From: an uncultured Candidatus Saccharibacteria bacterium
GTDB lineage: Bacteria > Patescibacteriota > WWE3 > UBA101185 > UBA10185
Length of the DNA stretch: 63,946 nucleotides
Direction of reading: 5' to 3'
NCBI GenBank assembly: GCA_964510435.1
Contig: CAZEBU010000003.1
Span: 1-63,946 of the forward strand
Shown here: positions 8,665 to 47,482 of the stretch, one piece after another
Layout of the letters: each line of letters opens with the position of its first letter
Numbering within the stretch: position 1 is the stretch's first letter
Position numbers and translations under genes: made by a program
The notes under the pieces: model-generated
The model's input: only the letters and a program-made list of their open reading frames with translations
Told to the model about the DNA's origin: nothing
The model's database searches: none

Positions 8665-8976
8665 GTGAATTCCTGGCAAAAACCAAAGCCATTACTCGAG
8701 TATGCTAAGTTAATAATGATGCTTAAACCCATGTCCCATAACAATACTCATGAAAAACCTTTCCTACACTCTCCCCTGGAAACACCTGATGAAGAGAAAC
8801 TTCAAAAGGCAAAGGATATTTTGGGATCGCTATGTGAGCAACTAACTGATGAGCAAATAAAAACCATTATCACAGAAATTCAGTTTTTAACGGACACCTG
8901 GCTGGACGAATTTGAGCGAGAGATATTTAATGGGAAAACCATTCAAGAGTTGTTATCCGAGGAGATCCTGTTGTGA
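8665..8976 (+). CDS. hypothetical protein coupled to the serine recombinase (start uncertain; alternative ATG at 8716)
   Basis: Its stop overlaps the recombinase GTG start (GTGA). Confidence 0.4.
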   Translation: MNSWQKPKPLLEYAKLIMMLKPMSHNNTHEKPFLHSPLETPDEEKLQKAKDILGSLCEQLTDEQIKTIITEIQFLTDTWLDEFEREIFNGKTIQELLSEEILL

Positions 8977-10439
8977 GAAAAAATAATACTGTTATATATT
9001 TGAGAGTTTCCACCGATGAGCAGATTGATAATTTTTCTCTGGAAACACAGCTGGAAATCTGCCAAAACGAAGCAGATCGTCGGAAATTAGAAGTTGTAAA
9101 AATATTTCGAGAAGAAGGTAAATCTGCCAAGAATATTACTGGCAGACCCACGCTGGTTCAATTGCTAGCGTATTGCCGCAAAAACAAAAATAGTGTTGTA
9201 GCTGTAATTGTTTATCGTATTGATCGCCTATCTCGTCAAATTGCAGATTATTTGGCTATTCGCAAAAAACTGTCAGATAGTGGGGTCACTTTATATTCTG
9301 CCACAGAGCCTACGGGAGATAGTCCTACAGAAAAGCTGGTGGAGACAATGCTGGCTGGGTTTGCTCAGTTAGACAACGATATTAGATCTGAACGATCCAG
9401 CAACGGAATGAAAGCAAGATTTTTGGCAGGACATTGTAATGGTAAACCCCCTTTGGGTTATTTAATGAAGGATAAGGTGGTAGTCAAGGATCCGGAAACT
9501 TGGGACAAGGTAAAAGCATCCTGGGATTTAATGGCTACAGGCACAAAAAGTCTTAAAGACATGGCTAATTATATGAATGACCTAGGATTGCGCCATAAAC
9601 GTAGAGCAAAATCTTTCAGGATCAGGCCTCAATCGGCAGGCCGAATATTTCGACACAAGTTTTATACCGGTATATTAACTTCTAAGACTTATAAACTGGA
9701 GGTTCAAGGGCAACACTCACCCATGATCTCCCAAGCTCAATTTGATGAAGTTCAAGACATTTTGGATGGTAGGAATGTTAGAAATATTCCAGCGCAAAGA
9801 AAAGTAAGAGATAATACAGATTTCCCTCTTAGAAGAATTGTTAAATGTGGAAAGTGTGGCAGTGGTTTGACGGGAGCTTGGAGTAAGGGCAGAAAAGCAA
9901 AATATCCCTACTATCGATGTGGCAAACCATGTAACAGCAAATCTATTCGCTGGCAAGATGTGCATAATGAGCTAATTAATGTTCTCAGGAGCATTGAAGT
10001 AAAACCACAGACCAAGGCATTATTTGAATATTGCTTTGCTTCTACGTTCAAGGCTAGGAAAGAAGTGCTACAACAAAGAAAAAAACGCGTAAACGCTGAT
10101 ATTAGCAAATTTAAAGAATCAAAGAAGACAATTGTTAAGAAAAATCTTGCAGGAATATATTCTGATGAGATTTACAAAGAGCAAATGGCAATGGTAGCCT
10201 CCAAGTTGAACAGATTGACTATGCTCAAACAAGAACAGATCTACAAACAATATGACTTGACGAAACTAAATATAATGCTCGGCAAGAAACCAAAGCGGCT
10301 AGATAAAACCTACCAAGAACTATCCCCCAGTCAAATACGTGTATTTATTAGCTTGGTTTTTCAGGAGGGTTTGACTTGGGAGTATGAGGGAAAGCTGAGG
10401 CGTAAGGTGATTAATTTATGGGAAGATATAGAAAATTGA
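8973..10439 (+). CDS. large serine recombinase (integrase) 1
   Basis: VIYLRVSTDEQ (catalytic Ser), YRIDRLSR, a recombinase domain, a zinc-ribbon CGKCGS..YYRCGKPC and a coiled-coil tail. Confidence 0.9.
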   Translation: MRKNNTVIYLRVSTDEQIDNFSLETQLEICQNEADRRKLEVVKIFREEGKSAKNITGRPTLVQLLAYCRKNKNSVVAVIVYRIDRLSRQIADYLAIRKKLSDSGVTLYSATEPTGDSPTEKLVETMLAGFAQLDNDIRSERSSNGMKARFLAGHCNGKPPLGYLMKDKVVVKDPETWDKVKASWDLMATGTKSLKDMANYMNDLGLRHKRRAKSFRIRPQSAGRIFRHKFYTGILTSKTYKLEVQGQHSPMISQAQFDEVQDILDGRNVRNIPAQRKVRDNTDFPLRRIVKCGKCGSGLTGAWSKGRKAKYPYYRCGKPCNSKSIRWQDVHNELINVLRSIEVKPQTKALFEYCFASTFKARKEVLQQRKKRVNADISKFKESKKTIVKKNLAGIYSDEIYKEQMAMVASKLNRLTMLKQEQIYKQYDLTKLNIMLGKKPKRLDKTYQELSPSQIRVFISLVFQEGLTWEYEGKLRRKVINLWEDIEN

Positions 10440-11404: not shown

Positions 11405-12412
11405 TTATGTCTTTAAAGGAAGATTTAATGCACTAAATATTTCAGACAATTCTGGGTTTATTGTTCTTTGGTTACGTGGAAAAATTTGACTGAATCTATA
11501 TGGAAAATAGCCAGCTACCCCATCCCAGATGCTAGTTCCAACTTCATTCGCGCTTCTTATTTGACCCTGACCTCTGTATAAAAGGTTGTCTAGAAATTTT
11601 TCTACATTTTGAGGTGATACGATAAAAAGTTTTAGACCGTTATTCGTGCAAGCATCCGCTAATAACTTGTTTATGTGGGGATCTCTAAATCCATAACCAA
11701 TTATGAGTAATTTCACGTTCCCGGCAGATATAGCTTGTTGAAATAGTACGAAATACCAGTTCAGCAAAGGAATTCTTGCTATTGTATTCATTTTATTGAT
11801 CCCTATTACCTTGCTATCTGCTCCATTAGAAGTTATCCATCTGAGCGATCCATGTAGCTTAACGTAGTATTTTGCGTCTCCCATCTGTGCTTTGAATGTT
11901 TCCAACTCACTCTCAATAGGAAGTTGTTTAAAAGTTTCGGCATCAAGGTCTGAATTGCTCACATCCCCCCAACTGCCAGCATAGTTCATTGATTGAGGTG
12001 TTAAGGGTCTCCAACCAAACCTTTTTTCCATCACCATATCTTGGTTTAAAGTAAAACAAGCATTTGAGGACGCTACGAATCTGTCTAAAAATCTACGAAC
12101 GTCACTAGGGTGAAGGGGTAATGAATCCCATCTGGACTGAATAACTCTATCCATAGAAACATAAGCTTCATTTACTATGTCTTTAAATATCTGAACCTCA
12201 TTCTCTGGAAGTCCACTTCTTTCGTCAAACACATCTGAATAAATTTCTTCAAAATCAAACTGTTTTCTCAATTTGATTTTCAGTTGTCCAGCATCATTTA
12301 ATTTTGGATTATTAAAAATCCAAGACCACATTTCTCTGGCCAAAAAGCCACCGAAATTAGCTGTAAACCCTGCGCCTGTCAAAAGTAAGGTGTTTCCAAA
12401 AGCAATTGTCAT
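11405..12412 (-). CDS. SIR2-like (SIR2_2 family) protein, putative NAD+-consuming effector
   Basis: LLLTGAGFT (GAGxS/T), FTLNQDMVMEK (catalytic Asn region), YVKLHGSLRW (catalytic His) and LLIIGYGFRDPHIN. Confidence 0.75.
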   Translation of the reverse strand: MTIAFGNTLLLTGAGFTANFGGFLAREMWSWIFNNPKLNDAGQLKIKLRKQFDFEEIYSDVFDERSGLPENEVQIFKDIVNEAYVSMDRVIQSRWDSLPLHPSDVRRFLDRFVASSNACFTLNQDMVMEKRFGWRPLTPQSMNYAGSWGDVSNSDLDAETFKQLPIESELETFKAQMGDAKYYVKLHGSLRWITSNGADSKVIGINKMNTIARIPLLNWYFVLFQQAISAGNVKLLIIGYGFRDPHINKLLADACTNNGLKLFIVSPQNVEKFLDNLLYRGQGQIRSANEVGTSIWDGVAGYFPYRFSQIFPRNQRTINPELSEIFSALNLPLKT

Positions 12413-12423: not shown

Positions 12424-12732
12424 TCATTTTTTCCTTTTCTCTTTAGCCATCTTTAACCTAAAATCTGCATTCAGTTTTTGAGCACCTTGCTTTAGGGATT
12501 TCAATTGAGAGTCATCGCCTTTTAGGCTAGTGGGGGTTTCAACCTCTCCTATCATTTTTATTTTGCTACCTTGTTTGACCATAACATCAGGGATCTTCCC
12601 ATGAACAGGATCTGGTTTATTGTATCCTGGTAAATCAGCAAGCACCGTTTTACCCGGTCCTTTAAGCCTGTTGGCCCACTGGCTAACTTTTGTATCATGA
12701 GTCTTCTGTCCTCTTTTTGTTCTTAAAGCCAT
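12424..12732 (-). CDS. small basic protein (102 aa), possible minimal PD-(D/E)xK-like fold
   Basis: IPDVMV..x11..IGEVET resembles a D..ExK-type core but lacks the Lys. Its start shares 1 nt with the lexA stop (TAATG). Confidence 0.45.
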   Translation of the reverse strand: MALRTKRGQKTHDTKVSQWANRLKGPGKTVLADLPGYNKPDPVHGKIPDVMVKQGSKIKMIGEVETPTSLKGDDSQLKSLKQGAQKLNADFRLKMAKEKRKK

Positions 12733-13349
12733 TAGTCACCACCACCCTTCAATACATCTACAGCTATACCTTGAACTGTGAAGTCATCAAACATATAAAA
12801 TGGTTTATTTTTGTCATTATCAGATTCTGGCATAAGTTTTATACACCCTTCACCTTCTACCATTTTTTTAACTGTTGCATCATCGCCAATCAATGCAACA
12901 ACTCGAGAGCCAAAGTCTGCGGTTGGTTGTTTTTTTACCAAAACACAGTCTCCATCATCGATCGTTTTATCATTGATATTTGATTTATTCATACTATCGC
13001 CAGTTGCACGTAGGAAAAAATAATCATCGGCATCACCCTGAAGTTTCGAGCTGTCATATGGAACATAAGCCTCAACATTTTCTATAGCTAATAGTGGAGT
13101 GCCTGCTGAAATCTGACCTACCAGGGGAATTTGAACTTTCTCACTGTCTTTGATAAGTGAAATACCTCGTGAATCAACCAGGTACCCCTTTCTTTTCAAC
13201 TCATCGGTATGCCGTTGAACAGAACTAAGGCTGGTGTAATTTAACAATTTCCTTATCGCTTCCAGAGTAGGTGAAATACCGTTTTTATGTGCATAATCTC
13301 GAATTGCTACTAGTACTTCTTTTTGCTTTGATGTTAGTTGCCTGTCCAT
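12732..13349 (-). CDS. lexA: LexA repressor (S24 peptidase)
   Basis: N-terminal LexA wHTH (LTSKQKEVL..GISPTLEAI..KGYL), Ala-Gly cleavage site in VGQISAGTP, Ser nucleophile in GDSM and Lys in ATVKKM. Confidence 0.9.
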   Translation of the reverse strand: MDRQLTSKQKEVLVAIRDYAHKNGISPTLEAIRKLLNYTSLSSVQRHTDELKRKGYLVDSRGISLIKDSEKVQIPLVGQISAGTPLLAIENVEAYVPYDSSKLQGDADDYFFLRATGDSMNKSNINDKTIDDGDCVLVKKQPTADFGSRVVALIGDDATVKKMVEGEGCIKLMPESDNDKNKPFYMFDDFTVQGIAVDVLKGGGD

Positions 13350-13526: not shown

Positions 13527-13943
13527 TCAGGCCGAGTTTATAAAGTCAATAACTCTTTTAATCTCTTTGGAAAACCAGTTTTTATTATTTAACTCGCATT
13601 CCCACAATACTAATATCTCCCATCCCAAGCTTTTTAGTTTGATGATGTTTGCCTTGTCTCTTTTTTTGTTTCCAAGTAGTTTTTCTTTCCAAAACTTCTT
13701 ATTAGTTACAGGTAGCATGGCTTTTTTACAGTTATGTTGATGCCAAAAACACCCATGCACAAATATGGCAATCTTTTTTTCAATAAAAACAATATCGGGT
13801 CTTCCTGGAAGTTTATAGTGTATGCGATATCTCATGCCCTCAGCAAAAAAAGCTTTTCTTACGCTAAGTTCCAAAGCCGTGTCTTTTCCCTTTACTCGGG
13901 ACATATTCTTACTTCTTTGTCTTTTGGTAATCCTATCCGCCAT
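13527..13943 (-). CDS. vsr: very short patch repair endonuclease
   Basis: RSKNMSRVKGKDTALE, PGRPDIVF, AIFVHGCFWHQH and WECEL. The start was trimmed to MADRITK (the ORF-track 5' extension overlaps the methylase gene). Confidence 0.9.
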   Translation of the reverse strand: MADRITKRQRSKNMSRVKGKDTALELSVRKAFFAEGMRYRIHYKLPGRPDIVFIEKKIAIFVHGCFWHQHNCKKAMLPVTNKKFWKEKLLGNKKRDKANIIKLKSLGWEILVLWECELNNKNWFSKEIKRVIDFINSA

Positions 13944-13986
13944 ACTGTATTTTTGTATTATAATAGATTTATTGAAGTAACATCCT

Positions 13987-14991
13987 ATGAAAAACAAAAA
14001 CACCGCACATACATTTACATTTATTGACCTTTTTGCAGGGATCGGAGGTATTAGGATTGCTTTTGAAAAAGTGGGGGGAAAGTGTTTATTTACGTCCGAA
14101 TGGGACAAATATTGCCAAGAAACATATCATAAGAATTTCGGTGAAATACCCCATGGAGATATAAGAAAAATAGACATTTCCGATATTAAAGATCATGATG
14201 TTTTGCTGGCAGGATTCCCTTGTCAAGCTTTTTCTATAGCAGGTAAACGCGGTGGTTTCGAAGACACTAGAGGTACATTGTTCTTTGAGACTGCAAAAAT
14301 AATAAAGGAAAAACAACCTAAAGCTTTTTTCTTAGAAAACGTCAAGGGACTAGTTAACCACAGAAGCGGGCAGACTCTTTCAACAATACTTAATGTTTTA
14401 AGAAATGAATTGGGTTACTTTGTACCAGAACCTAAAATAGTGAATGCTAAGGATTTTGGAGTTCCTCAAAACAGAGAAAGAATATTTATTTTAGGTCTCA
14501 GGCAAGACTTAGGCATAAAAGACTTTAACTACCCCAAGCCTTTAGTTACAGAAGTCAAGATAAAGGATATTTTGGAAAAAAATCCCGTATCAGTTAAATA
14601 TTATCTATCAAATCAATATCTTGAGTCGCTTAGAAAACACAAGAGAAGACACGAAAGCAAAGGTAATGGATTCGGTTACGAAATACTTAATGAAAATGGA
14701 ATAGCTAATGCCCTGGTAGTAGGTGGTATGGGGCGCGAAAGAAACCTCATAATAGATACCCAGTTAAAAAACTTTACTCCTGTAACAAACATAAAGGGAG
14801 AGGTTAATCGGGAGGGAGTAAGAAGACTAACTCCACGGGAGTGCGCACGTCTTCAAGGATTTCCCGAAAGCTTCGACATCCCCGTTTCGGATGCACAAGC
14901 CTATAAACAATTCGGTAACTCTGTTGCAGTCCCCGCTGTACATGCAACTGCCAAAAAACTAGTTTATAAGTTGAAAGGGGTACTTGTATGA
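13987..14991 (+). CDS. DNA (cytosine-5)-methyltransferase
   Basis: Motif I FIDLFAGIGG, motif IV GFPCQAFS, ENVKGL, QNRERIF, TPRECARLQGFP and GNSVAVP. Confidence 0.92.
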   Translation: MKNKNTAHTFTFIDLFAGIGGIRIAFEKVGGKCLFTSEWDKYCQETYHKNFGEIPHGDIRKIDISDIKDHDVLLAGFPCQAFSIAGKRGGFEDTRGTLFFETAKIIKEKQPKAFFLENVKGLVNHRSGQTLSTILNVLRNELGYFVPEPKIVNAKDFGVPQNRERIFILGLRQDLGIKDFNYPKPLVTEVKIKDILEKNPVSVKYYLSNQYLESLRKHKRRHESKGNGFGYEILNENGIANALVVGGMGRERNLIIDTQLKNFTPVTNIKGEVNREGVRRLTPRECARLQGFPESFDIPVSDAQAYKQFGNSVAVPAVHATAKKLVYKLKGVLV

Positions 14992-16070
14992 TTACAGGAA
15001 ATAAAGGTGAATGGAGTGAAATTTACGCTTTTTTTAAACTGCTGTCCAATGGTAAATTGCATGCTGCAGATGAGAATTTGGAAAAGATTAAGGACATCTA
15101 CTATCCGATAATAAATATTCTTAAAGAAAACGGACTTGAATATAAAAGAAATTCGAGTATCAAAATCATTGATGGGGAAACGGGGAATGAAATAATGTCC
15201 CTACCTGTAGATGAATTCACAAATGCATCAAAGCAGTTGTTAGCAAGAATTAAAGAAGATAAGAAGAAAAACGGTACATTCTCGTTCAAAGAAATAGAGG
15301 GATTTTTAGAAAAAATAAAAATCAGGTCCATAAAATCCCCATCGAAGAAAAAGGAAGATATAACGCTTATTGTGCACGATTTTAGAACAGGGTTAAAACC
15401 AAAACTTGCGTTTAGTATAAAGTCTATGCTGGGAAGTGCATCAACTTTGCTTAATGCAAGCAAATCAACCAATTTCATTTACAAACTGATAACCAACAGG
15501 CTTTCCGTTCGAGAAGAGGAAGTCCCTTATGGAACAGACACTAAAATGAGAATACGAGATGCCTTGGTACAAAAACTCAACGAAGATTACAAGATTATTT
15601 TTTCGGAAATCCCAAACAAAACCTTTAAATCCAACTTGCAAATGATAGATAGCATGTTACCCGATCTGTTGGCATGGGTGGTTTTTTACTACTACACTAC
15701 AAACAATAATTCTCTTGTTGACTTAACAAAACTGTTGGAAAAAAATAATCCGCTAGGTTACGACAAAGATGTAGCTCATAAATTTTATAGACACAAAATT
15801 AAAAACTTTCTACTTGACGTTGCCTTAGGAATGACGCCTTCGACACCATGGAAGGGAAAATATGATGCTACAGGGGGTTATTTGATTGTAAAAAGTGATG
15901 GAGATATTGTCTGTTACCACATCTACAACATTAATGAGTTTAAAGAATATCTGTTTAAAAATACGAAATTGGATACACCTTCAACATCTCGACATGACTT
16001 TGGAAAAATTTATGCGGGGGATAGTACCTTGGAAGTGAAGCTAAACCTCCAAATAAGATTTATAAAATGA
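14988..16070 (+). CDS. type II restriction endonuclease, HpaII-family-like
   Basis: The N-terminal NKGEWSEIYAFFKLL matches my recollection of the HpaII family. It overlaps the methylase stop by 4 nt. A Vsr gene next door fits a C5-methylase system. Confidence 0.65.
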   Translation: MITGNKGEWSEIYAFFKLLSNGKLHAADENLEKIKDIYYPIINILKENGLEYKRNSSIKIIDGETGNEIMSLPVDEFTNASKQLLARIKEDKKKNGTFSFKEIEGFLEKIKIRSIKSPSKKKEDITLIVHDFRTGLKPKLAFSIKSMLGSASTLLNASKSTNFIYKLITNRLSVREEEVPYGTDTKMRIRDALVQKLNEDYKIIFSEIPNKTFKSNLQMIDSMLPDLLAWVVFYYYTTNNNSLVDLTKLLEKNNPLGYDKDVAHKFYRHKIKNFLLDVALGMTPSTPWKGKYDATGGYLIVKSDGDIVCYHIYNINEFKEYLFKNTKLDTPSTSRHDFGKIYAGDSTLEVKLNLQIRFIK

Positions 16071-16110: not shown

Positions 16111-16317
16111 TTGGACGATAAACAAAAAGAATTTCTCGATTTAGTTTCATCCAAGTATGCAGAGAAAGGTTTGGATGAAGAGAAATTGCTGGTGTTGTTG
16201 AACTTGAAGTACCACGCCATCGCAAATGCCGAGCAGGTTTTGGGTGATGTTAGTCAACACCGCTCTGTGTTTATCAACATGCAGGAGGGTTTGTATAGGG
16301 AGTTTTCAGCGGCTTGA
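16111..16317 (+). pseudogene. remnant of a type I restriction enzyme R-subunit C-terminal domain (EcoEI_R_C-like)
   Basis: LLNLKYHAIANAEQVLGDVSQHRSVFINMQEGLY resembles the LKY..a..lG....F..fQ..LY C-terminal signature. Only 68 codons with a TTG start and no upstream helicase part. Confidence 0.45.
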
Positions 16318-16320: not shown

Positions 16321-17319
16321 TCACAAACTGCTTTCGTAAATGTGGTTTCTACTAAACTTTTTACAAGTGCGTATTTGATCATTGCCTTTTGTCCTGGTTT
16401 GCAAAACTGGCTTGATTAACATCAATTCAGCAAACTCTTCCAATTTAAATCCTTGGGTTTTAGAAACCTGTTTCGTAAAACTCACTAGACCCTGTATTTT
16501 GTTGTATTTGCTAGACGGAATAAAATCTTTGAACTTGGCATTTTCAATGATGAGATTCCTTATTTCTTGAAATTGTTGCCTGTTTATTGATAATTTGGCA
16601 TTGACAGTTATTCCAGTAACTTTTTGACAATAACCTGAAGTGATAACCTTTACCTTACGTCTTTTCACTGCATACTTGTTTTTCAATAGAACTCTAACTA
16701 TGTATTCGATCGCCTCTTCAACTTCTTTTCTATCCCCAGAAATAGTGATGTCATCAATAAACATGGAGGCGTCCAACCCTGTTTTTTCACTATATTTTTT
16801 AAAGTCATTAAATATTGGAGTAAGTACATAGTTGCATAGTAATGGACTAGTTGGAGCACCCTGAGGTAACCTGTGTTGGAATGTTGTGAGTTTGGTTAAA
16901 ATATTTGCTGTTTTTGCACCACAACCAAAGCAATCTATCCAAACTCGATGTACTTTATTGTGGCTAATATTTGGAAAACAGTTCTTAATATCAACTATGC
17001 CAATACAGTCCTTACCTACGTGGACTTTTGCGTTATCAACAATTGATTTACCAGAAACCCCACCTGTCATTCCAGGAGGTAATTGACATAATTCCTTATT
17101 GAGAATTCTTTTTAGTATCTTCTTTTGGATACCTTTTAAAGGATATTGCGGGTTGTCTATATGTCTCCATTTATTGGTACCTTTTTTGTGAAGGTCAAAT
17201 GGTTTGTAGAATCTACCTGAAGTGTTGGCCAATTGCTGAAGTTCAATGCGATCGCAGTCTAGTAAAGACTCTAAATATTTCAATGATAATATTTGAACTG
17301 AGGTGTGTAATTTACTCAC
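16321..17319 (-). CDS. retron-type reverse transcriptase
   Basis: IVDIKNCFPNI, LPQGAPTSPLLCN, FIDDITISG (YxDD box) and QKVTGITVN (the retron-typical VTG motif). Size is 332 aa. Confidence 0.8.
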   Translation of the reverse strand: MSKLHTSVQILSLKYLESLLDCDRIELQQLANTSGRFYKPFDLHKKGTNKWRHIDNPQYPLKGIQKKILKRILNKELCQLPPGMTGGVSGKSIVDNAKVHVGKDCIGIVDIKNCFPNISHNKVHRVWIDCFGCGAKTANILTKLTTFQHRLPQGAPTSPLLCNYVLTPIFNDFKKYSEKTGLDASMFIDDITISGDRKEVEEAIEYIVRVLLKNKYAVKRRKVKVITSGYCQKVTGITVNAKLSINRQQFQEIRNLIIENAKFKDFIPSSKYNKIQGLVSFTKQVSKTQGFKLEEFAELMLIKPVLQTRTKGNDQIRTCKKFSRNHIYESSL

Positions 17320-17321
17320 AT

Positions 17322-17603
17322 TTAATTCCCCAATAATGCAAGAAGTAGGTTTTTACCAATCTTTTCAATCTCATTTTTATCAGCGTTTTTAAGATCGTCT
17401 TTATCAGATGCTAATAGGGAAAGAAGGTAAAAAGGTATTTCGAGTTTTCTCGAAATCTCTTCTAATAATTTTACACTGGGAGTTCTTTCACCTTTCTCTA
17501 TTCTTGATAGGTAGCTTGCATCAAGTTTTAGCTCCTCACTCAAGTCTTTTTGTGAAATCCCTTTGGCAGCGCGAATAGTTTTTATTGCTTTTCCGTAGTT
17601 CAT
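17322..17603 (-). CDS. XRE-family HTH protein, retron accessory candidate
   Basis: ISQKDLSEELKLDASYLSRIEKGERTPS. Its stop lies 2 nt from the RT start. Confidence 0.7.
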   Translation of the reverse strand: MNYGKAIKTIRAAKGISQKDLSEELKLDASYLSRIEKGERTPSVKLLEEISRKLEIPFYLLSLLASDKDDLKNADKNEIEKIGKNLLLALLGN

Positions 17604-17661
17604 ATTAAATTGATTCCTTATATAAAAATCTGAGGGTTATCTCAGGTTCTTATAAAAGAAG

Positions 17662-17868
17662 TTAAGGATTAATGTTGTGCATTATTTCCAATAATCTCTT
17701 ACAGATTTTATTTACAATAAACTCCGCTTTTTTAGTGTTTTTAACACTTAGCGAATGTTTTAAATCCTTTAGAGCTTTTTTTAGAAATTGCTCGTCATCC
17801 GATCCCAAAATTCCTGATTTTACAAGAGTGTTGATTGAATCAACAATTTGTCTAAATCTTTTTGCCAT
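17662..17868 (-). CDS. small helical hypothetical protein (68 aa)
   Basis: GGAGGTG RBS upstream of MAKRFRQ. First gene of the RT operon. Confidence 0.45.
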   Translation of the reverse strand: MAKRFRQIVDSINTLVKSGILGSDDEQFLKKALKDLKHSLSVKNTKKAEFIVNKICKRLLEIMHNINP

Positions 17869-18353
17869 ATTAATCACCTCCTTCTTCTGTAGGTGGCTTC
17901 CTCAGATTAATGAGAGGACTACAGTACCACATTCGCCCTCTGTAGAGAAAATATTGGGATCTCCTTAACTCTTTACGTACCACTTGGTTAGTATTCAGCA
18001 ATTAGCTGTTGTTGATAAACGTTTCAGGCAATCAAAACATACACATACAGCCGACACACGCCCCAGGGTAAGAGCGGAAAAATTTACAAGTAGTAAATAT
18101 CCGCGACTTATTTTTTTATAAAATAGTCATCAGTAGCTCTTAATGAGCTGAGCTAGAAGTATAAGTTCTAACTGTTAGGTGCGATATTATACGAGGTGAT
18201 ATTAATGTGCGATGCGGTTTCCACCGTCTCAATTGTCAATATATCAGTTTGTTTTTAGATTGTCAATTATAATGTCTGTTAGACATTTGTCATCTGGAAT
18301 GATATGATTCTGATACTCATATATGAGCGTTGCAAAATTAGGACCACCATTAG

Positions 18354-19874
18354 ATGAATAAACAAAAAATAACACTCTCAAAATCCGACTACATGCTTTT
18401 TCTTCGCCACCCTGCTTGGTTTTGGTTGAAGAAGTTTGATAAGGCTAAGTTGCCTGCCGTTGACGATAATTTGCAGGCAATGTTTGATGCAGGGCATGAG
18501 TTTGAAGGGTATGCAGAACAGCTTTTTCCTGCCGGAGTTAAGCTTGGGTTTAATAACTATCAGGAGTACCTTTCTCTACCTCAACGAACCAAAAACGCAT
18601 TAGTTGAAGATGTTTCTACCATTTTTCAAGGCCGTTTTGAAGCAGATGGGATTACTTGCATTATTGATGTACTAAACAGAGTTGAGGGTAATACTTTTGA
18701 TTTAGTAGAGATAAAAAGCAGTACCAAAGCCAAGCTGGAGCATTACTATGATCTAGCCTTTCAGACTATCGTTTTGGAGAAATCAGGACTTACAATTCGG
18801 AATATCTCTGTAATTCATATAAATAATGAATACATGCGCCAGGGCAAGATTAATCCCCAAACGCTGACTACAGAAACTGATGTTACCGAGGAGGTGAAAG
18901 CCTTGATCAATCTCACCCAAGAACAAATAGACAAAGCATTTGTGATCTTGTCTACAAAAACCATGCCCGATATCTCACCCCGTTTTGTCAATCAGCTTGG
19001 TGTCCCTAGAGTAAACTGGTTTGCAGAATGGCTGGATATCTACAAGAGTCTAAAGCCTGAGCTTGATCCATACAACATCTACAATCTAGGCTATTCGAAT
19101 GCTGAGCAAATAGGCAAACTAGAAGACGAAGGTATTGAGCTAATTGCAGATATTCCAGAGGAACTGGCTTTGCGACCTAAACAAATTACCCAAATCAAAA
19201 CTACTCGCGACAACAAGCGCATAATTGAAAGCCAAATGATCAGAGAGTTTTTGGATACCTTTGAATACCCCCTATATTTCTTTGACTACGAGACATTTTC
19301 CTCGGTGATTCCCGCCTTTGATGGCTGTAAACCCTACAAAGATTACCCTTTTCAGTATTCCTTACATATTCTAGACATACCAGATGCAGAAGTAAGGCAT
19401 GAAGAATATTTGCATGCTGACAACTCCAACCCTATGCCAGTGCTTATCGAAAAACTAAAGGTTGATATCGGAGACAAGGGCACCATTCTTACTTGGAACA
19501 TGAGCTATGAAAAGGGATGCAACACTAGAATGGCAGAATTTTACCCAGAGCATAAAGAGTATTTAGAAAGTTTGAACGAGCGCATTAATGATCTAATGAT
19601 TCCATTTTCGCAAATGTGGTTTGTAGACAAAGATTTCTTTGGCAGTGCAAGCGTCAAAAACGTTTTGCCGGTACTGGCACTGGAGCTAAGCTACAAAGAA
19701 CTAGACGTATCAGATGGCCTCAAGGCGCGCAGAATGTGGACACAAACTGTTTTGGAGGGTAAGAATGGGAAGGATTGGGAAAAGATAATGTCAGATTTGA
19801 GCAAATATTGTACACTTGACACCTTTGCCATAGTAAGGATTTTGGAAGAATTAAAGAAAATAGTTTCCAACTAA
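18354..19874 (+). CDS. DUF2779-family protein (N-terminal PD-(D/E)xK nuclease plus C-terminal exonuclease-like domain)
   Basis: IIDVL..FDLVEIKSSTK (D..ExK) and YFFDYETFSSVIPAFDGCKPYKDYPFQYSLH, which I recognise as the DUF2779 hallmark. Confidence 0.65.
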   Translation: MNKQKITLSKSDYMLFLRHPAWFWLKKFDKAKLPAVDDNLQAMFDAGHEFEGYAEQLFPAGVKLGFNNYQEYLSLPQRTKNALVEDVSTIFQGRFEADGITCIIDVLNRVEGNTFDLVEIKSSTKAKLEHYYDLAFQTIVLEKSGLTIRNISVIHINNEYMRQGKINPQTLTTETDVTEEVKALINLTQEQIDKAFVILSTKTMPDISPRFVNQLGVPRVNWFAEWLDIYKSLKPELDPYNIYNLGYSNAEQIGKLEDEGIELIADIPEELALRPKQITQIKTTRDNKRIIESQMIREFLDTFEYPLYFFDYETFSSVIPAFDGCKPYKDYPFQYSLHILDIPDAEVRHEEYLHADNSNPMPVLIEKLKVDIGDKGTILTWNMSYEKGCNTRMAEFYPEHKEYLESLNERINDLMIPFSQMWFVDKDFFGSASVKNVLPVLALELSYKELDVSDGLKARRMWTQTVLEGKNGKDWEKIMSDLSKYCTLDTFAIVRILEELKKIVSN

Positions 19875-19879: not shown

Positions 19880-21640
19880 CTAGTCTTCATATTTCAAATT
19901 ACCCTTACTAATCCTACACTTTACAACCCTTAAGTTACTTTGAGGTAAATAATTTAGCAATGCCGATCTTTTTCCAATCAATTTATTACGAAGACGGTCA
20001 AATACCTTAAAAGAAACAATGGCACAAGACCTTTTGGCTCTTGTCAGCGCAACAACAAATCTATAGATATCCTCCCCAGTTATATTATATGGGCTTGCTG
20101 GTAGTACCCCATTGTGGCATTCCCAAATGATTACGTGTAATGCTGATAGTCCTTTAGAGCCAAGATAATTTGTGAGTTTGACGCGGACTTTGTTGGGATT
20201 TTCGGTAATAATCTCATTAGATGTGTTTTTCTCTGAAAAGTACTCTTCAATTTTGACCATATGTTTGTTTTTGTAGACTTCTGGCAACAATTCAAAAATA
20301 GGGACACTTTCCCTATGCGATCGTTTTATTATTGTAGCTATGCTCTCCAGTGGATCCTCACGTAGAATGATTCTCCATCCTAAGTTGTTTTTCTCATCAG
20401 CGCGCACCATTTTATAACCAACCACAATTTCATTGTTGCTTTCATTTTCCTTTTTTTCAATCATAAATAAGTCCATATCTAAGTTACTTACAAGGTATTT
20501 TGCTAGGGAATCTAGCCTGTGTTGCGATTCGGCACCAATGACAAGAAATTGAATGTCCTTTTCTGTACCAACCAGGCTTTCATTGTTTGTAATAGTCTCA
20601 ATATGGTTTTTAATAAATTTAAAAGCTGTCTTTTCAACGGAGCATTGTACTTCAATAATTTGAGGGTATTTTGTATCTAATGCAAATTTGTCAGGCCAGT
20701 AGCTAATATACTTTTTATCATTGATACGATCATGCAGAAGACCAGTACTTATAGCTTTTTTGATGAGACTATTTACGGAATTCACCAATACACTAGTGCA
20801 CCTACTTGAGAAAGGGAGGTTAAATTTTTGATTTGAAGGAAGGCTATTGTACAAATTTATAATAAACTTTTTTGATGCTTTTCTAAAGCCATACAAGGAT
20901 TGATCATCATCTCCCGCTACCAAGATTGGATTTTTTGAAGACAATACGTTAATAAATGAGGACTCGAGTTTATTGAAGTCTTGATACTCATCGGCTATAA
21001 CAAGGTCATACTGAGGGATAAGATAGCTATTTGAGGAAAGTGCTTTGTATACTTTATATACGGAATCCTGATGACTGATTGCACTATAATACGAGGATCT
21101 GCTAAGAAAAAATAGTAAGCTAGCATTTTCTTCATCTAAATTTGCAAATGCAGCATGGAAGTTCTTTTTGGAATAGCTGAGTTCAAGAATGGCAGCATCG
21201 CTTTCAATTATCGTAGCTAGGTTCGGGTAATATATGCCATCAAAACCTAATTTTGAATAAAGAAGTTCTTTGCAATATCCGTGGAATGTACTAGCTTTTA
21301 CATTCGCAAATTCCGGTTTATCAAACTCATTTATCAAATCATTAGCTAGGTTATTTATCAAAGTGAAAATGCGTGCATTGGAATTTGGAGGCATTTTTTT
21401 GATAACTTGCATAAAAGTGAATGTTTTCCCAGTTCCTGGACCTGAAACAATTAGTCGTAAATGAGCTTTTGAATCTGTCACTAATTTCAACTTTTCTTTT
21501 CTCTCTTTGTGAAAAGATGCACATTTTTCGCAAACTGCAAGTGAGCCTGTTAGCTTCTTAGCTATATTAATTCTGAATTCCTTGGCACTGAAAGCATATG
21601 TTTTTTCAGTTTGCAAACCACAATTTTGACAGCATTTCAT
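19880..21640 (-). CDS. UvrD/Rep-like SF1 helicase with N-terminal zinc ribbon
   Basis: CQNCG..CEKC, Walker A SGPGTGKT, DExQ-type VIADEYQDFN, VAGDDDQSLY and C-terminal VALTRAKRS. Confidence 0.75.
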   Translation of the reverse strand: MKCCQNCGLQTEKTYAFSAKEFRINIAKKLTGSLAVCEKCASFHKERKEKLKLVTDSKAHLRLIVSGPGTGKTFTFMQVIKKMPPNSNARIFTLINNLANDLINEFDKPEFANVKASTFHGYCKELLYSKLGFDGIYYPNLATIIESDAAILELSYSKKNFHAAFANLDEENASLLFFLSRSSYYSAISHQDSVYKVYKALSSNSYLIPQYDLVIADEYQDFNKLESSFINVLSSKNPILVAGDDDQSLYGFRKASKKFIINLYNSLPSNQKFNLPFSSRCTSVLVNSVNSLIKKAISTGLLHDRINDKKYISYWPDKFALDTKYPQIIEVQCSVEKTAFKFIKNHIETITNNESLVGTEKDIQFLVIGAESQHRLDSLAKYLVSNLDMDLFMIEKKENESNNEIVVGYKMVRADEKNNLGWRIILREDPLESIATIIKRSHRESVPIFELLPEVYKNKHMVKIEEYFSEKNTSNEIITENPNKVRVKLTNYLGSKGLSALHVIIWECHNGVLPASPYNITGEDIYRFVVALTRAKRSCAIVSFKVFDRLRNKLIGKRSALLNYLPQSNLRVVKCRISKGNLKYED

Positions 21641-21841: not shown

Positions 21842-22601
21842 ATGAAACTATCTACCAAAGCACAAGCTAGCATTAACAAAGTCATAGAAAAGTTCAAAAC
21901 TGGTGATCTATCGTCCATTAGTAGAGTTGCCAGAATTAGGCTTGATAAATCAGCCCCAGCACACAAATGGAGTTTATCTAATAAAGTAATTGCTTTTGTT
22001 CAAGCTGAAGAACTAGATTGCAGGGGGTTTAGACAATGGCAAGATGTAGGACGACAAGTCAAAAAAGGTAGCAAGGCTGTATACATCTTTCGCCCCCACA
22101 CTATCAAAAAAGATGATGAGAATGGAGAAAAAGAAAATATTTGCATTGGATTTTCAACTGCTCCGGTATTTGCCGCCTCTTGTACGGAGGGGGAAAACAA
22201 CTTGCCAGGATATACCCCCGCAGAGCTTCCCCCTCTGGCAGACATAGCCAAGAAATTTAATATTTCAGTTGAATATGTACCAGTAACTCCCGATAAGCTA
22301 GGAGACTGTAAAGCAGATGGAAGCAAGATAAGACTAGGCAGTCAGGACACAAGAGTATTTTTCCACGAATTAAGCCATGCCATACAACGCTAGGATTGAT
22401 GGAAAGCTTAAAGGAGGGCAACAGATAGATCAAGAAACCATAGCCGAATTCACAACAGCGGTACTGATGGATTTCTACGGTTTGGGAGATCACACCGGCA
22501 ATGCCTGGAAATATATCAGTCAATACGCAGGTGATCCACTAGTTGCCATTACTAAGGCTCTGGGAACGGTTGAGAAGGTGTTGGGGGTATTACTCCAGTA
22601 A
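21842..22601 (+). pseudogene. ArdC-like antirestriction / ssDNA-binding metalloprotease gene, split by a frameshift near 22377-22393
   Basis: ArdC-N-like FRQWQDVGRQVKKGSKAVYIF, then FFHELSHAI followed by a TAG. The expected continuation (RIDGKL..QETIAEFTTAVLM..NAWKYI) lies in the adjacent frame. Confidence 0.55.
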
Positions 22602-22980: not shown

Positions 22981-23757
22981 CTAATTTTCTTCCACCTTTT
23001 CCCAAACATCCCCTTGCAACTCACTATCCTTAACTATTTCCTTGGTGGTCAGAAAAAAATCAATCTCGTCTTCTGCTTCTTCCTCTAATACCTGGGCAAT
23101 GTGTTTGTGTAAAAAGGTCTTGATAGTTTCATTAGGACACACAAAAAGCAACTTTGGGTCTGGATGGCCTGTTTTCTCCTGCCATGTGCCCTCATCAAAA
23201 TATTCCACATATTGGGCAATTTTGCTCCTGAGCATAAAACGCGGAGTACCTTCGTCAATTATTTCCAAGAAATATCTTTTTGTTTGGTCTTTTGATTCGA
23301 TCGCAATATATGCATCGGGTCTTTTGTAAGGTAAATAGTAATGATTTGATAAATCAGTTTTGGTGAAAAAGTATAGCTTGCTGTTGTTTTTGGTTTGCTT
23401 TTCAAGATAAAAACATATGTTAGCTATAAACAAACAATGTTTTATTAGTCTTTGTGACCTGGTTTTATCTCGATATACACGTTTTAATATATTTTCGTTT
23501 ATATCTGGATGATTTAGTAGTAGCTTTCTGGATTTAGTGGCTAAGCAGTATATAGCAGGTTTGGTGTTTTCTTTGAGCTTTTGTGAATATTTTCTACTGA
23601 TAATGTTTTTATTGGTTAGGTCTTTTAACCATGCATTTATTCGTTTACGGTCTTTGTGGTTTAAAAGTCTTTGAATGTGAGTTCTGTCTAGGAATCTAAA
23701 TCTATATAGCAGGAGAAGTATTTGAAATTGTTTAGGTGTAATTTTTAGGTTTTCCAT
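22981..23757 (-). CDS. replication-relaxation family protein
   Basis: ITPKQFQILLLLYRFRFLDRTHIQRLL..RINAWLKDLTNKNIISR fits the Replic_Relax N-terminal wHTH pattern. Confidence 0.6.
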   Translation of the reverse strand: MENLKITPKQFQILLLLYRFRFLDRTHIQRLLNHKDRKRINAWLKDLTNKNIISRKYSQKLKENTKPAIYCLATKSRKLLLNHPDINENILKRVYRDKTRSQRLIKHCLFIANICFYLEKQTKNNSKLYFFTKTDLSNHYYLPYKRPDAYIAIESKDQTKRYFLEIIDEGTPRFMLRSKIAQYVEYFDEGTWQEKTGHPDPKLLFVCPNETIKTFLHKHIAQVLEEEAEDEIDFFLTTKEIVKDSELQGDVWEKVEEN

Positions 23758-23954: not shown

Positions 23955-24665
23955 ATGTCAGACTCCGATATACAGGCAGTATCAAAAGCAGCAGCAGAAG
24001 CGTCAAAATTTGGGACTAAGGCGTTAGATACCACGGATAAAATACTCAAATTTATAGCACGGGTATTTAGTGAACCTATTCAAGAAACTTCAGGGATGCT
24101 TGGCGACAGCATGAAGTATCTAAGATGGAAGAGGCAAATTAGAATAGTAGATAGAGTAAATAGCATTTTGGAAGAGAGAGGAGTTGAGAAAACAACTCCA
24201 ATACCACCTAAATTTGCAATTCCAATGTTACAAAATGCCAGCCTAGAAGATGAGAATTATCTTCAAAATATTTGGATCAGACTAATTTCTAACAGCATGG
24301 ATCCCGATTTTGAAGGAGAGTTGAGATTTGCTTTTATTGAAATAATTAAAAGCTTAAACTCACTTGATGCAACAATATTAGATTTCTTTTATAGCACACT
24401 TAAAAAAGATTCAAAAGTTGATTGGGGGCAAATTACAAGTTATTCCTTGACCAAAGAGCAGATTTGTAAGGAATTGGATCTTGATGTAAGTGATTATTTT
24501 GTAAGTATTTATAATTTATTCAGAGTTCAGTGTCTAGCCCCAGCAATATTTAAGGGTGGAGTCAAAATGGGAAACGAAAGTCTTACCGTTTATAAGGGAG
24601 CCGATGCTGTTACATTAACTCCTCTAGGGAAGAATTTTATTAAAATGTGTATTGCTACTAATTAG
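23955..24665 (+). CDS. Abi-alpha (DUF4393) family protein
   Basis: LRWKRQIRIVDRVNSILEERGV..PIPPKFAIPMLQNASLEDENYLQNIWIRLISN matches the Abi_alpha pattern as I recall it. Confidence 0.6.
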   Translation: MSDSDIQAVSKAAAEASKFGTKALDTTDKILKFIARVFSEPIQETSGMLGDSMKYLRWKRQIRIVDRVNSILEERGVEKTTPIPPKFAIPMLQNASLEDENYLQNIWIRLISNSMDPDFEGELRFAFIEIIKSLNSLDATILDFFYSTLKKDSKVDWGQITSYSLTKEQICKELDLDVSDYFVSIYNLFRVQCLAPAIFKGGVKMGNESLTVYKGADAVTLTPLGKNFIKMCIATN

Positions 24666-27536: not shown

Positions 27537-27713
27537 ATGGCAAGACTAAAAGGCTCGAAAAATGAAAAGACTCAATCTGGTAGAAGACCATCATCAACAC
27601 TGTCCTCATCTGAGCGTATTCAACTGCTTACAAGTCTTGTAATAGACCGAATCATTCAGGACAAAAACAACGGTTCGCCACTTCTACACAAAATCAGGAG
27701 GGATTATCGATGA
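27537..27713 (+). CDS. small basic protein (58 aa) translationally coupled to recombinase 2
   Basis: MARLKGSKNEKTQSGRRPSS... Its stop overlaps the recombinase start (ATGA). Below the ORF-track cutoff. Confidence 0.4.
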   Translation: MARLKGSKNEKTQSGRRPSSTLSSSERIQLLTSLVIDRIIQDKNNGSPLLHKIRRDYR

Positions 27714-32341: not shown

Positions 32342-32416
32342 TGGTGGGTCTACATGGATTCGAACCATGGACCTCTCGGATGTAAGCCGAGCGCTCTGCC
32401 ACTGAGCTACAGACCC
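32342..32416 (-). tRNA. tRNA-Val (anticodon UAC)
   Basis: GGGTCTGTAGCTCAGTGG..CTTACAT loop..GGTTCGAATCC..ACCA. Confidence 0.9.
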
Positions 32417-46185: not shown

Positions 46186-46261
46186 TGGTGGGGAGGGTGG
46201 GAATCGAACCCACATCGCCGGTTTTTCAGACCGGTGCCGTGACCGCCTTGGCTACCGCCCC
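46186..46261 (-). tRNA. tRNA-Phe (anticodon GAA), atypical D-arm
   Basis: Anticodon stem CCGGT/ACCGG with loop CTGAAAA, T-arm GTGGG-TTCGATT-CCCAC, A73 and CCA. One C5:U68 mismatch. Confidence 0.75.
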
Positions 46262-46300
46262 AAATTACCTTCACATTTTACCAAGAATCAGGTGCACTTT

Positions 46301-47476
46301 CTAACCTTTTAGAGTAATAATCGGTTTTAGTTTATATAAAACTTCTATTAGATCTTTTTGGTTATCCACTACCTTATTGATATCTTTATAGGCCTCAGGC
46401 GCTTCGTCAACGAACTTCATGCTAACGTCGGTGTAAGTCTCTTTCATGGTCTTCTGCAGTTTTTCTTTGGAAATGGTCTTTTTAGCTTGTTTACGGCTCA
46501 TCACCCTTCCGGCACCATGAGAACAGGATTCGTAGCTGTCTGGATTTCCTTTTCCGTTAACAATATAGCTGGCGGTTCCCATTGATCCCGGAATAATACC
46601 TATCTGATTATATTGTGCCTGCGTGGCGCCCTTTCGATGAATAATAACGTTTTCTCCAAAGTGTTTTTCTAAGTTAGCAAAATTATGATGGATATTTATC
46701 CCTTCTTTTCGAACATCTTTTGTGGGCTCATTTAATTTTTCGAAAAAGGAATCGACGCTATGTTGCAGCATTCTCCATCTACTTTCCAACGCATAGTCAA
46801 TAGCCCAGCTCATGTCTGTATGGTAGTTTTGTCCGCTTTCGCTGTCCAATTTCAAAAACCATAAATTGCTTGGTGTCTCTTCTTTGTTTTTAATATTCTC
46901 ATCCTTTGCAACGTCGTTATAATACTTAGCAATTCTAAAGCCTATATGTCTCGACCCTGAATGGATCATAAACCAGACATGGCGATCTTTGTCTGTCTGT
47001 GCTTCGATAAAATGATTGCCTCCTCCTAGTGTGCCTAATTGTTTACCGGCTCCATCAAGAAGCTTTAGTAATTCTACAGCTTTTAATTGTTTATCTAAGT
47101 GGCGCATGCTTTGTTTATCGCAGTAACTATCAAAGCCAAGAGGTATCTTTGCCTTAACATTGTAGTACCAATCTTGCCAAAATCCCCGATTATTAAGCTT
47201 TTCATCAAGAACTATTTCCGTTTGATAGGCACTTATGCCACAACCTATATCCACACCCACGATATTGGGAACAATAATATCTTTGGTGGCCACCACACTG
47301 CCTATTACAGCACCCTTTCCTAGATGAGCGTCGGGCATAATAGCGATGTGTTTAAACAAGTGAGGAAGTTCTAGCATTTTGTCTATTTGTTCGAGTGTTA
47401 TTTCTTCAATATCTGATTTTCTTTTTACCCATATCTTGGCCACTTTACCTGTATTTTTGTTTTCGTGAATGATCAT
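46301..47476 (-). CDS. rtcB: RNA-splicing ligase RtcB
   Basis: MPDAHLGKG, GVDIGCG, GGGNHFIE, HSGSRHIG, PGSMG and SCSHGAGR. Confidence 0.92.
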   Translation of the reverse strand: MIIHENKNTGKVAKIWVKRKSDIEEITLEQIDKMLELPHLFKHIAIMPDAHLGKGAVIGSVVATKDIIVPNIVGVDIGCGISAYQTEIVLDEKLNNRGFWQDWYYNVKAKIPLGFDSYCDKQSMRHLDKQLKAVELLKLLDGAGKQLGTLGGGNHFIEAQTDKDRHVWFMIHSGSRHIGFRIAKYYNDVAKDENIKNKEETPSNLWFLKLDSESGQNYHTDMSWAIDYALESRWRMLQHSVDSFFEKLNEPTKDVRKEGINIHHNFANLEKHFGENVIIHRKGATQAQYNQIGIIPGSMGTASYIVNGKGNPDSYESCSHGAGRVMSRKQAKKTISKEKLQKTMKETYTDVSMKFVDEAPEAYKDINKVVDNQKDLIEVLYKLKPIITLKG

Positions 47477-47482
47477 GGGCTA

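Follow-up and report, generated by a model that had tools for sequence, protein, structure and literature searches.

A probable Type VI retron in a Patescibacteria genome, with a small-protein gene embedded in its structured RNA and a divergent nuclease gene beside it

What kind of system is encoded by a reverse transcriptase (RT) gene that lies, in the genome of a Patescibacteria (candidate phyla radiation, CPR) bacterium, behind two small genes and a hairpin-rich region? This question is raised by the locus at positions 16321–18353 of a 63,946-nt stretch of DNA from an uncultured Candidatus Saccharibacteria bacterium (contig CAZEBU010000003.1; the whole stretch is called the window below). 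A preliminary description, made from the sequence, had proposed a retron-type RT operon beside a non-coding region that could encode the retron RNA, and had seen no obvious enzymatic effector. Our analysis indicates that the locus is very probably a Type VI retron, that is, an RT-based anti-phage toxin-antitoxin system, and that it forms part of an integrative mobile element in a CPR bacterium. The system is already known in kind, having been classified in 2020 and dissected in 2025–2026, and is neither new nor effector-less.

The three genes of the proposed operon were confirmed, in the order SP-HTH-RT on the minus strand: a small protein (SP) gene (17662–17868), a gene for a Cro/C1-type XRE helix-turn-helix (HTH) protein of 93 aa (17322–17603), and, separated from the HTH stop codon by 2 nt, the RT gene (16321–17319; 332 aa, GTG start). 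The small ORF as called spans 17662–17877, and a conserved ATG at 17868 gives an SP of 68 aa. The translation of the RT holds RLPQGAPTSPLL, FIDD (the YxDD box), QKVTGITVN (the VTG motif) and NAKVH (the NAxxH motif); NAxxH, VTG and YxDD are the sequence hallmarks of retron RTs. Across 21 relatives, residues N96, H100, D189 and T235 of the RT were invariant and D190 and G236 were nearly so. In Pfam, the RT matched RVT_1 (2.5e-24) and the HTH protein matched HTH_3 (8.4e-15), while SP had no match. An AlphaFold2 model of SP (predicted local distance difference test score, pLDDT, of 88) displayed a three-helix bundle with helices at residues 2–17, 23–41 and 45–66.

Comparison with defence-system models placed the RT among the retrons and pointed to a particular type. 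With PADLOC, RT_VI ranked first (3.1e-73, 244.5 bits, residues 9–290), followed by RT_III-A (193.8 bits); every one of the top 25 matches was a retron RT model, and the best model for the HTH protein was HTH_VI (1.2e-24). Retron models also ranked first in NCBIfam, although under their curated cut-offs (retron_St85_RT, 161 vs. 235), while the group II model TIGR04416 scored 38 bits (cut-off 300) and Drt2 scored 21 bits (cut-off 390). An Rfam scan of the whole window at the gathering threshold returned tRNAs only, with no group II intron RNA at the locus, from which it also follows that no curated RNA family covers the retron non-coding RNA (ncRNA), and no template or variable repeats of a diversity-generating retroelement (DGR) were found. 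Together, the PADLOC, NCBIfam and Rfam results speak strongly against a group II, DGR or defence-associated RT (DRT) identity, in keeping with the preliminary description, and they assign the RT, by its model matches, to the retron RTs of Type VI (Mestre et al., 2020). Type VI corresponds to RT clade 3 and is defined by a Cro/C1 HTH protein (cluster 2_1), whose gene adjoins the RT gene on its upstream side or overlaps it, and its small auxiliary proteins are three-helix bundles (Mestre et al., 2020; PMC7736814); it is thus the kind of retron class with a standalone HTH partner to which the preliminary description had alluded.

We then considered whether such a retron is out of place in its host. 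A protein search with the RT (E ≤ 1e-20) gave 481 RTs, about 20 of them 45–66% identical, one of which is named Candidatus Paceibacterota. The closest RTs come from metagenome-assembled genomes (MAGs) of Candidatus Woesebacteria (61% identity), Candidatus Paceibacterota (55%) and Candidatus Levybacteria (53%, over the matched segment, at Levybacteria locus L083), and many others lie on unbinned contigs; the named relatives of the RarA protein of the window are likewise from Patescibacteria and Microgenomates, which makes the host CPR-like. A Type VI retron of Candidatus Levybacteria, Mestre-729, was already in the 2020 catalogue (PMC7736814), so a Type VI retron in a CPR genome is unsurprising, contrary to what had been supposed in the preliminary description. 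The window retron likely belongs to the heterogeneous lineage that Garcia-Rodriguez et al. (2026) call “Large”. Loci were collected from genome and metagenome scans and from contig look-ups, and in those with upstream sequence a well-conserved SP of 64–68 aa (consensus beginning MAxRFQQIVDSINSLVKSGVLGSED) was followed by an HTH protein of 91–97 aa and then by the RT. A word-indexed search with SP gave three relatives only, small ORFs being seldom called. Two gene fusions were observed among the relatives. At L115 (866–1414) and L116 (857–1405), which come from independent assemblies, a change of TAA to CAA removes the stop codon of SP and yields a 182-aa SP-HTH fusion; and the RT relative P0065 (435 aa) combines XRE HTH and RVT_1 in one polypeptide, an HTH-RT fusion that fits the reported physical association of HTH with RT.

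The evidence that ties these genes to a retron RNA comes from the region upstream. Between 17878 and 18353 the only ORFs are of 43–45 aa, none of them conserved in relatives, and yet 410–485 nt upstream of SP, together with the SP-HTH spacer, could be aligned across 15 loci (the window and 14 related loci, mostly of CPR bacteria) with RTs 45–66% identical. The curated structure on this alignment comprises 74 pairs. Of the alignment cells at these positions, 91.7% were paired, compared with 39–50% in slid controls; 41 pairs displayed compensatory changes, compared with 11–18; and the covariation score was 0.364, compared with 0.08–0.14. None of 500 shuffles reached any observed pairing or covariation measure, and the 610-nt transcript of the window taken alone had a folding z-score of −5.3 relative to its shuffles. 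RNAalifold gave most local helices and the long-range helix P7, and missed the pairing of two inverted repeats, IR1 and IR2; this pairing and the base of a long hairpin were added by eye, and both were then counted on the alignment. A naive all-against-all covariation scan was noisy, because purine-rich and U-rich runs form G-U pairs with each other, and served as a lead only. These data support the earlier proposal that the upstream region encodes an RNA, and its structure is conserved in homologous loci. They also indicate that this RNA, rather than just adjoining the operon as had been thought, extends across the whole SP gene as far as a terminator at 17621–17654.

The elements of this RNA are given here 5′ to 3′ on the minus strand. 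Its putative promoter (18238–18266) is of the sigma-70 type, with TTGACA at 18266–18261, a spacer of 17 nt and a TG-extended TATATT ending at 18238 (11 of 12 matches), and its position is kept in the 11 alignment loci that reach that far as well as in L115, L121, L122 and L123. Transcription would start near 18231 and yield a transcript of ~610 nt ending at ~17622. The 5′ leader (18193–18226) consists of a stem-loop, P1 (18215–18226; 100% paired, with three of its four pairs covarying), and of a conserved single-stranded segment, GCACAUUAAUAUCACCUC (18193–18210), which forms the 5′ inverted repeat and is complementary to the Shine–Dalgarno (SD) region of SP (anti-SD segment). Next come four msr-like stem-loops, P2 (18151–18173), P3 (AGCTC..GAGCT; 18136–18148), P4 (18105–18128) and P5 (GCGG..CCGC; 18074–18104), which are 89–94% paired over 18074–18173 and include 17 pairs with compensatory change. 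P3 and P5 had been picked out as stems in the preliminary description, and both display compensatory changes.

A hairpin of 91 nt (17978–18068) follows, with a variable sequence and a conserved GCCG/CGGC base (UACC/GGUA in the window). Its equivalents in the relatives are unalignable, and yet in 14 of the 15 loci the region folds as a single long hairpin whose two ends meet in a closing stem, less cleanly so in L121. By analogy with published Type VI RNAs, this hairpin is likely the template for reverse transcription (msd). Downstream of it, IR1 (AAGAGUUAAGGA, 17962–17973) and the 5′ strand of P7 (GAUCCCAAUAUUUU, 17948–17961) together make up the junction at which the RNA branches into its arms. 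P8 (AGAGGAC/GUCCUCU; 17912–17942) is 94% paired, with five compensatory pairs, and its 3′ strand overlaps by two alignment columns the 5′ strand of the hairpin CUGUAG..CUACAG (17887–17924), which lies directly upstream of the SD. All 15 loci conserve this last hairpin, also listed in the preliminary description; it is nearly invariant in sequence and 97% paired. A direct repeat in the RNA (consensus CGGCAC) was observed as GUGGUAC in both window copies (17977–17983 and 17925–17931, the second in the loop of P8), and it is matched by changes of UGCC to UACC on the 5′ side of the base of the template hairpin and of GCCG to ACCG in P1; such coupled changes hint at alternative pairings or at a common protein site.

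The remainder of the RNA lies in and behind the SP gene. The SD (AGGAGGUG) and start codon of SP (17864–17882) form the 3′ partner of the anti-SD segment. The 3′ strand of P7 (17801–17814) falls within SP codons (..ILGS..), and since 8 of the 12 P7 pairs (96.7% paired) are compensatory, the SP coding sequence is under constraint at the level of RNA structure. IR2 (UCCUUAACUUCUU, 17656–17668) overlaps the SP stop codon and pairs with IR1, with the compensatory variants GGA/UCC, GGU/ACC, GGG/CCC and AAAGG/CCUUU. Between SP and HTH there is a hairpin with a U-run (17621–17654; terminator-like at 17645–17630 followed by TTTTT), which is 98% paired with three compensatory pairs and is likely the 3′ end of an abundant hybrid RNA; its 3′ flank covers the ribosome-binding site (RBS) of HTH. 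The anti-SD segment is very nearly reverse-complementary to the SD-AUG region, and in the window the two give a duplex of −17.3 kcal/mol, a value that 2 of 200 shuffles attained. In its UCACC/GGUGA core, four pairs (alignment columns 46–49 with 407–410) can form in every sequence with letters there, and L122 is without both TCACC and GGTGA. Because this helix crosses P7 and the IR1-IR2 helix, the RNA would adopt either alternative conformations or a pseudoknot; two conformations have also been proposed for the ncRNA of Retron-Sen3 (10.64898/2026.04.27.721009). Pairing of 18193–18210 with 17864–17882 would close the ncRNA in the way that the inverted repeats a1 and a2 do in other retrons, with little covariation.

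Other repeats and stems to which the preliminary description had drawn attention fared differently. Its stem at 18316–18327 (CTCATATATGAG) is not conserved in relatives. The direct repeats ATTGTCAAT and GTGCGAT are each present twice as described, at counts not above chance in the window; one copy of ATTGTCAAT is the −35 box, and both copies of GTGCGAT, which read ATCGCAC in the RNA, fall within conserved positions of the leader. The stem ATGTCTaacAGACAT (18271–18285) is conserved, as a palindrome of the DNA rather than as an RNA stem, because it lies upstream of the −35 box; indeed, the two transcripts that diverge from this region would both begin downstream of it. It was recognizable in most loci, with single-base changes in one half-site in a few and a degenerate form in L122, and the variant in L003 and L121 (TGACT..AGTCA) is itself symmetric, as expected of an operator bound by a dimer. 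The palindrome is therefore likely the operator of the HTH protein, to judge from its sequence and position.

To place the locus among the systems that have been dissected, we compared it with Retron-Vpa2 and Retron-Sen3. In Retron-Vpa2, the toxin is SP, whose gene is part of a structured hybrid RNA of ~470 nt that also holds msr-msd; HTH and RT bind this RNA; the msDNA (multicopy single-stranded DNA) is a stem-loop of 63–86 nt, of which very little is produced before the system is triggered by phage recombination proteins, whereupon it derepresses SP translation; RecBCD shapes the msDNA, and RT activity is needed for defence (Zhang et al., 2025; 10.1101/2025.10.22.683967). The window likewise has an msr-msd part and an SP coding sequence in one structured transcript, a sequestered SD and AUG, inverted repeats that tie the 3′ end to the first arm, direct repeats in loops and a long stem-loop template. 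It differs in the predicted length of its RNA (~610 nt), and where the Vpa2 model invokes host RecBCD for msDNA turnover, the window lineage encodes a RecB-family/DEDD nuclease next door. In Retron-Sen3, with the order SP-HTH-RT, SP is the toxin and HTH the antitoxin, single-stranded DNA (ssDNA) is made constitutively and inhibition of RecBCD is the trigger; its ncRNA has a stem-loop before the 5′ inverted repeat, an RBS in the basal stem, a long stem-loop (SL3) with a variable centre, and IR1 and IR2 flanking SP, and in the cl2075 lineage the SP coding sequence is under RNA covariation (10.64898/2026.04.27.721009).

The window RNA shares these Sen3/cl2075 features: a small stem-loop just before the 5′ inverted repeat, an RBS in the basal stem, a long stem-loop with a non-conserved centre (17978–18068, comparable to SL3 by analogy), IR1 upstream of the SP coding sequence, IR2 at its far end (just past the SP stop codon, which it overlaps in the window) and covariation inside that sequence. 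The hosts of cl2075 are Beta- and Gammaproteobacteria rather than CPR bacteria; constitutive ssDNA and post-translational control are features of Sen3. Relative to Type VI as a whole (PMC7736814), the window agrees in RT model, Cro/C1 HTH model, SP-HTH-RT order and three-helix SP. It departs from the type in the length of its SP (64–68 aa in the window lineage vs. 75–79 aa in the named clusters cl2075, cl2760, cl3272 and cl3897) and in having a conserved divergent nuclease, which is absent from the published definition. On this comparison, the window RNA matches the published hybrid-RNA layout, with predicted msr-msd, RBS and coding-sequence arms and the SP coding sequence embedded. By homology, the HTH protein would act as antitoxin, as repressor and as partner of the RT, in the manner of Type VI, and, by homology of architecture with Type VI retrons, SP would be the toxic effector. 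The preliminary description was thus right to count the 68-aa protein among the candidate effectors; there is no effector gap to fill, however, as the Type VI effector is already known as the SP toxin of Vpa2 and Sen3.

From these parallels we can sketch how the window system might work, with steps drawn by analogy from Retron-Vpa2 and Retron-Sen3 and, for the nuclease, from synteny. The sigma-70-type promoter (18266–18238) would drive the ~610-nt hybrid RNA, in the order P1, anti-SD segment, P2–P5, 91-nt hairpin, SP coding sequence held by IR1/IR2 and P7, and terminator, and read-through of the terminator would yield HTH and RT. SP, the three-helix bundle, would be the toxin; the HTH protein would bind the RT, neutralize or repress SP and restrain reverse transcription, and it probably binds the palindrome at 18271–18285 as well. 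In the uninfected cell, the sequestered RBS and AUG would hold SP translation low, and the conserved sequestration of SD and AUG is compatible with a Vpa2-like translational derepression. On infection, phage recombination or anti-nuclease proteins would let msDNA build up or would release HTH; SP would then be made or freed, and growth would stop. In the CPR lineage, a divergent Cas4-like/DEDD nuclease probably takes part.

That nuclease is encoded on the opposite strand by a gene (18354–19874, plus strand; 506 aa) whose putative promoter (18280–18308, plus strand) has its −35 box, TAGACA, inside the right half of the palindrome and an extended −10 element, TGaTATGAT (10 of 12 matches). The same layout (extended −10 TGnTATGAT) was found at loci of each of the three nuclease types described below, and the palindrome thus lies between two divergent promoters. 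The protein matched DUF2779 (PF11074; 3.4e-37, 128 bits against a gathering threshold of 23.3), its N-terminus matched Cas_Cas4 just below cut-off (2.7e-4), and the motifs D..ExK, FDYET and YCxLD are visible. DUF2779 proteins combine a Cas4-like PD-(D/E)xK domain with an RNase H-fold, DEDD-type 3′–5′ exonuclease of the PF13482 clade, and the window protein has the same two-domain build as the DUF2779/solo-Cas4 fusions (Majorek et al., 2014, PMC3985635; mSphere 2026, PMC13621843). These papers report no retron link, whereas the window gene has its bidirectional control region in common with a retron. A sequence search of the protein against solved structures gave nothing significant. In profile-profile comparison of the C-domain with DEDD exonucleases (with a two-sequence profile), only YCxxD aligned (E = 0.17), and because this comparison is weak the exonuclease fold rests on the literature and the visible motifs. 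For the N-domain and short Cas4-like nucleases, motifs were in register, weakly (E = 0.002, probability 14%).

The position of this gene is what recurs. Of the 15 close loci with upstream sequence, 13 have a divergent nuclease gene, which encodes a PD-(D/E)xK protein in 12 and a DEDD exonuclease in 1 (a 202-aa protein of the PolB-exo/RNase_H_2 type at L121), while L082 and L122 have neither nuclease. Two of the 12 PD-(D/E)xK genes encode DUF2779 fusions; the rest are Cas4-like, of 212–264 aa, with four cut by a contig end, and the full-length ones display four Cys together with the motifs D..DxK and QxxxY. Among other RT-related loci, ~8 of ~100 have such a nuclease (Fisher p = 4e-10, uncorrected for shared ancestry). 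In all, nuclease genes were recorded at L001, L003, L006, L110–L115, L119–L121, L123, L039, L042, L055, L063, L072, L090, L091 and L093. Those farther from the window include L039/L087, from a Gammaproteobacteria MAG, with a divergent Cas4-like gene, and L042, with a divergent DEDD exonuclease; L039 and L042 belong to a second RT lineage, ~31% identical, which has the same two nuclease families. In five Acidobacteria-type loci (three of them in Acidobacteria MAGs), a DEDD exonuclease gene follows the RT directly on the same strand, and in L055 a Cas4-like gene lies just after the RT in convergent orientation. Across lineages, conservation is stronger among the nucleases than among the RTs. Because the genes past the nuclease and past the RT vary by locus, with restriction-modification systems of various types downstream, conservation ends at the nuclease. 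No nuclease partner of retrons is described in Mestre et al. (2020) or in the Vpa2 and Sen3 papers, nor did a literature search find one. We consider a functional link between nuclease and retron plausible from this sequence context, and the idea that the divergent DUF2779 nuclease is recruited, already raised in the preliminary description, gains support from the conserved synteny and the shared promoter region, the linkage itself being one of association only.

How well does a Type VI retron account for the locus, and would another reading do better? Several points weigh against ours. The class membership of the RT rests on hidden Markov model scores, not on a phylogeny with reference sequences. 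The Vpa2 and Sen3 mechanisms differ, being translational and post-translational, respectively, and the sequence on its own does not tell them apart. Hardly any covariation backs the anti-SD helix or the CUGUAG hairpin, and both draw their support from conservation only. A search for the canonical a1/a2 pair and a branching G, as proposed in the preliminary description, brought out the SP-embedding hybrid-RNA layout, but neither the canonical repeats nor the branching G could be assigned in the window RNA. In E. coli, msDNA of the Levybacteria retron Mestre-729 went undetected, as it did for all six of the Type VI retrons tried (10.64898/2026.04.27.721009); absent msDNA is typical of uninduced Type VI retrons, yet RT activity stays unproven. 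Some of these points could be taken to favour a locus in which the upstream RNA is a mere cis-regulatory leader of SP, akin to a translational attenuator or thermosensor, and the RT has a non-templating or different role: a conserved 5′ segment sequesters the SD and AUG, there is no assignable branching G or canonical a1/a2 pair, and the msDNA of six Type VI retrons, including the Levybacteria one, was not seen under standard conditions. We nevertheless regard a mere leader as improbable, given that the catalytic motifs of the RT are intact and conserved, that a long hairpin of variable sequence with conserved shape and base is a typical msd signature, and that in Vpa2 and Sen3 the RT-dependent ssDNA maps to the equivalent stem-loop, with Vpa2 defence needing RT activity; moreover, five further covarying stem-loops would be superfluous for a plain attenuator. 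Far less probable still, to the point of being nearly negligible, is that the RT belongs to the DRT, “unknown group” (UG) or abortive infection (Abi) families, to group II introns or to DGRs and resembles retron RTs superficially. The RVT_1 core is indeed common to all prokaryotic RTs, and the NCBIfam retron models stayed under their cut-offs, but this would leave unexplained the clear lead of RT_VI over an all-retron list in PADLOC, the very low group II and Drt2 scores, the absence of group II intron or other Rfam matches and of DGR repeats at the locus, the retron-specific NAxxH and VTG motifs, and an adjoining HTH protein that fits a Type VI-specific model. That the locus is a decayed relic is ruled out by the intact catalytic motifs and by the conservation of RNA and proteins across the 15 loci.

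If the locus is a Type VI retron, as we favour, the question becomes where the system ends. The divergent nuclease could be an integral fourth component of the retron in the CPR lineage rather than a bystander, either as an msDNA-turnover enzyme of its own (replacing RecBCD as the target of phage anti-nucleases), as an msDNA processor or as a second effector, and we give this slightly less than even chances. In its favour are the synteny at close loci as compared with other RT-related loci, with conservation that stops at the nuclease, and the filling of one slot by three nuclease types; the DEDD exonuclease directly after the RT in the Acidobacteria relatives and the return of both families at L039 and L042; the conserved nuclease promoter, with its −35 box inside a palindrome common to the retron promoter; and the roles of RecBCD, whose inhibition triggers Sen3 and which shapes Vpa2 msDNA. 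On the other hand, the evidence is one of association only, and the nuclease is missing from the close loci L082 and L122 and from most distant Type VI loci. The stronger conservation of the nucleases relative to the RTs could point to genes that move independently, or to a shared hot-spot for insertion next to such genes, and DUF2779 proteins are widespread without retrons and quasi-essential in a minimal Mycoplasma (PMC13621843). The lack of such a partner in the retron literature could be due either to its novelty or to a verdict by earlier authors that it was not significant. More tentatively, and with a lower probability, we propose that Type VI retrons of the CPR, and of two or more further lineages, consist of four parts and include a nuclease of their own (Cas4/RecB-family, DEDD or a fusion of these), expressed from a bidirectional promoter that has one palindromic operator in common with the retron; the nuclease would replace RecBCD in keeping msDNA low, phage anti-nucleases would inhibit it, and the retron would thereby guard a self-encoded decoy nuclease in place of a pathway of the host.

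Around the locus, the window displays what is apparently an integrative mobilizable element combined with a defence island, at ~8.9–29.5 kb. It contains two serine recombinase genes (8973–10439 and 27710–29551), a SIR2-like protein gene (SIR2_2; 11405–12412), a LexA-like S24 repressor gene (12732–13349), Vsr/Dcm/HpaII genes (13527–16070), and genes for an ArdC-N protein (21842–22393), a Replic_Relax relaxase (22981–23757), an Abi_alpha protein (23955–24665) and a VirD4-like coupling protein (24662–27382). On the minus strand lies a UvrD/GajB-like helicase gene (19880–21640; Cys-rich N-terminus), for which GajB and a DRT-associated helicase were the best PADLOC matches. It is convergent with the DUF2779 gene, with 6 nt between the ends of the two, and they could form a separate nuclease-helicase pair. 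A 68-aa ORF (16111–16317, plus strand), convergent on the RT gene, had a sub-threshold match to EcoEI_R_C, the C-terminal domain of type I restriction R proteins (9e-5), and may be a gene remnant; it had no similarity to the HsdR protein beside the RT in L110, and a remnant of that type is thus not supported. Besides tRNA genes at 29379–29449 and 32345–32416, six tRNA genes were found within 5 kb among housekeeping genes (46189–51006, minus strand). In L039/L087 (3882–6014; Gammaproteobacteria MAG), a Cas4-like gene accompanies SP-HTH-RT, and the RT gene is directly followed by a gene for a Vsr-like protein, an ORF of 251 aa and a gene for a Dcm-type methylase, neighbours of the same kind as the Vsr/Dcm/HpaII genes of the window.

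A Type VI retron locus is in itself ordinary, and the value of this one is comparative. It anchors a CPR sub-lineage of ~15 loci with an alignable hybrid RNA and strong covariation, which independently backs the architecture of a toxin gene inside a retron RNA that was lately proposed from two proteobacterial systems. The elements that could be mutated are pinpointed (the anti-SD segment, IR1/IR2, P7 in the coding sequence and the variable template hairpin), the promoter, operator and terminator are mapped, and a recurrent, co-regulated nuclease neighbour emerges as a possible fourth component. What may be new is this conserved divergent nuclease of the CPR sub-lineage. The Vpa2 and Sen3 preprints disagree on the infection trigger and both implicate RecBCD, and the nuclease neighbour may be the missing link. 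Should it belong to the system, this would account for how such retrons could do without host RecBCD and, provided that the clone was without it, for the silence of the Levybacteria retron in E. coli.

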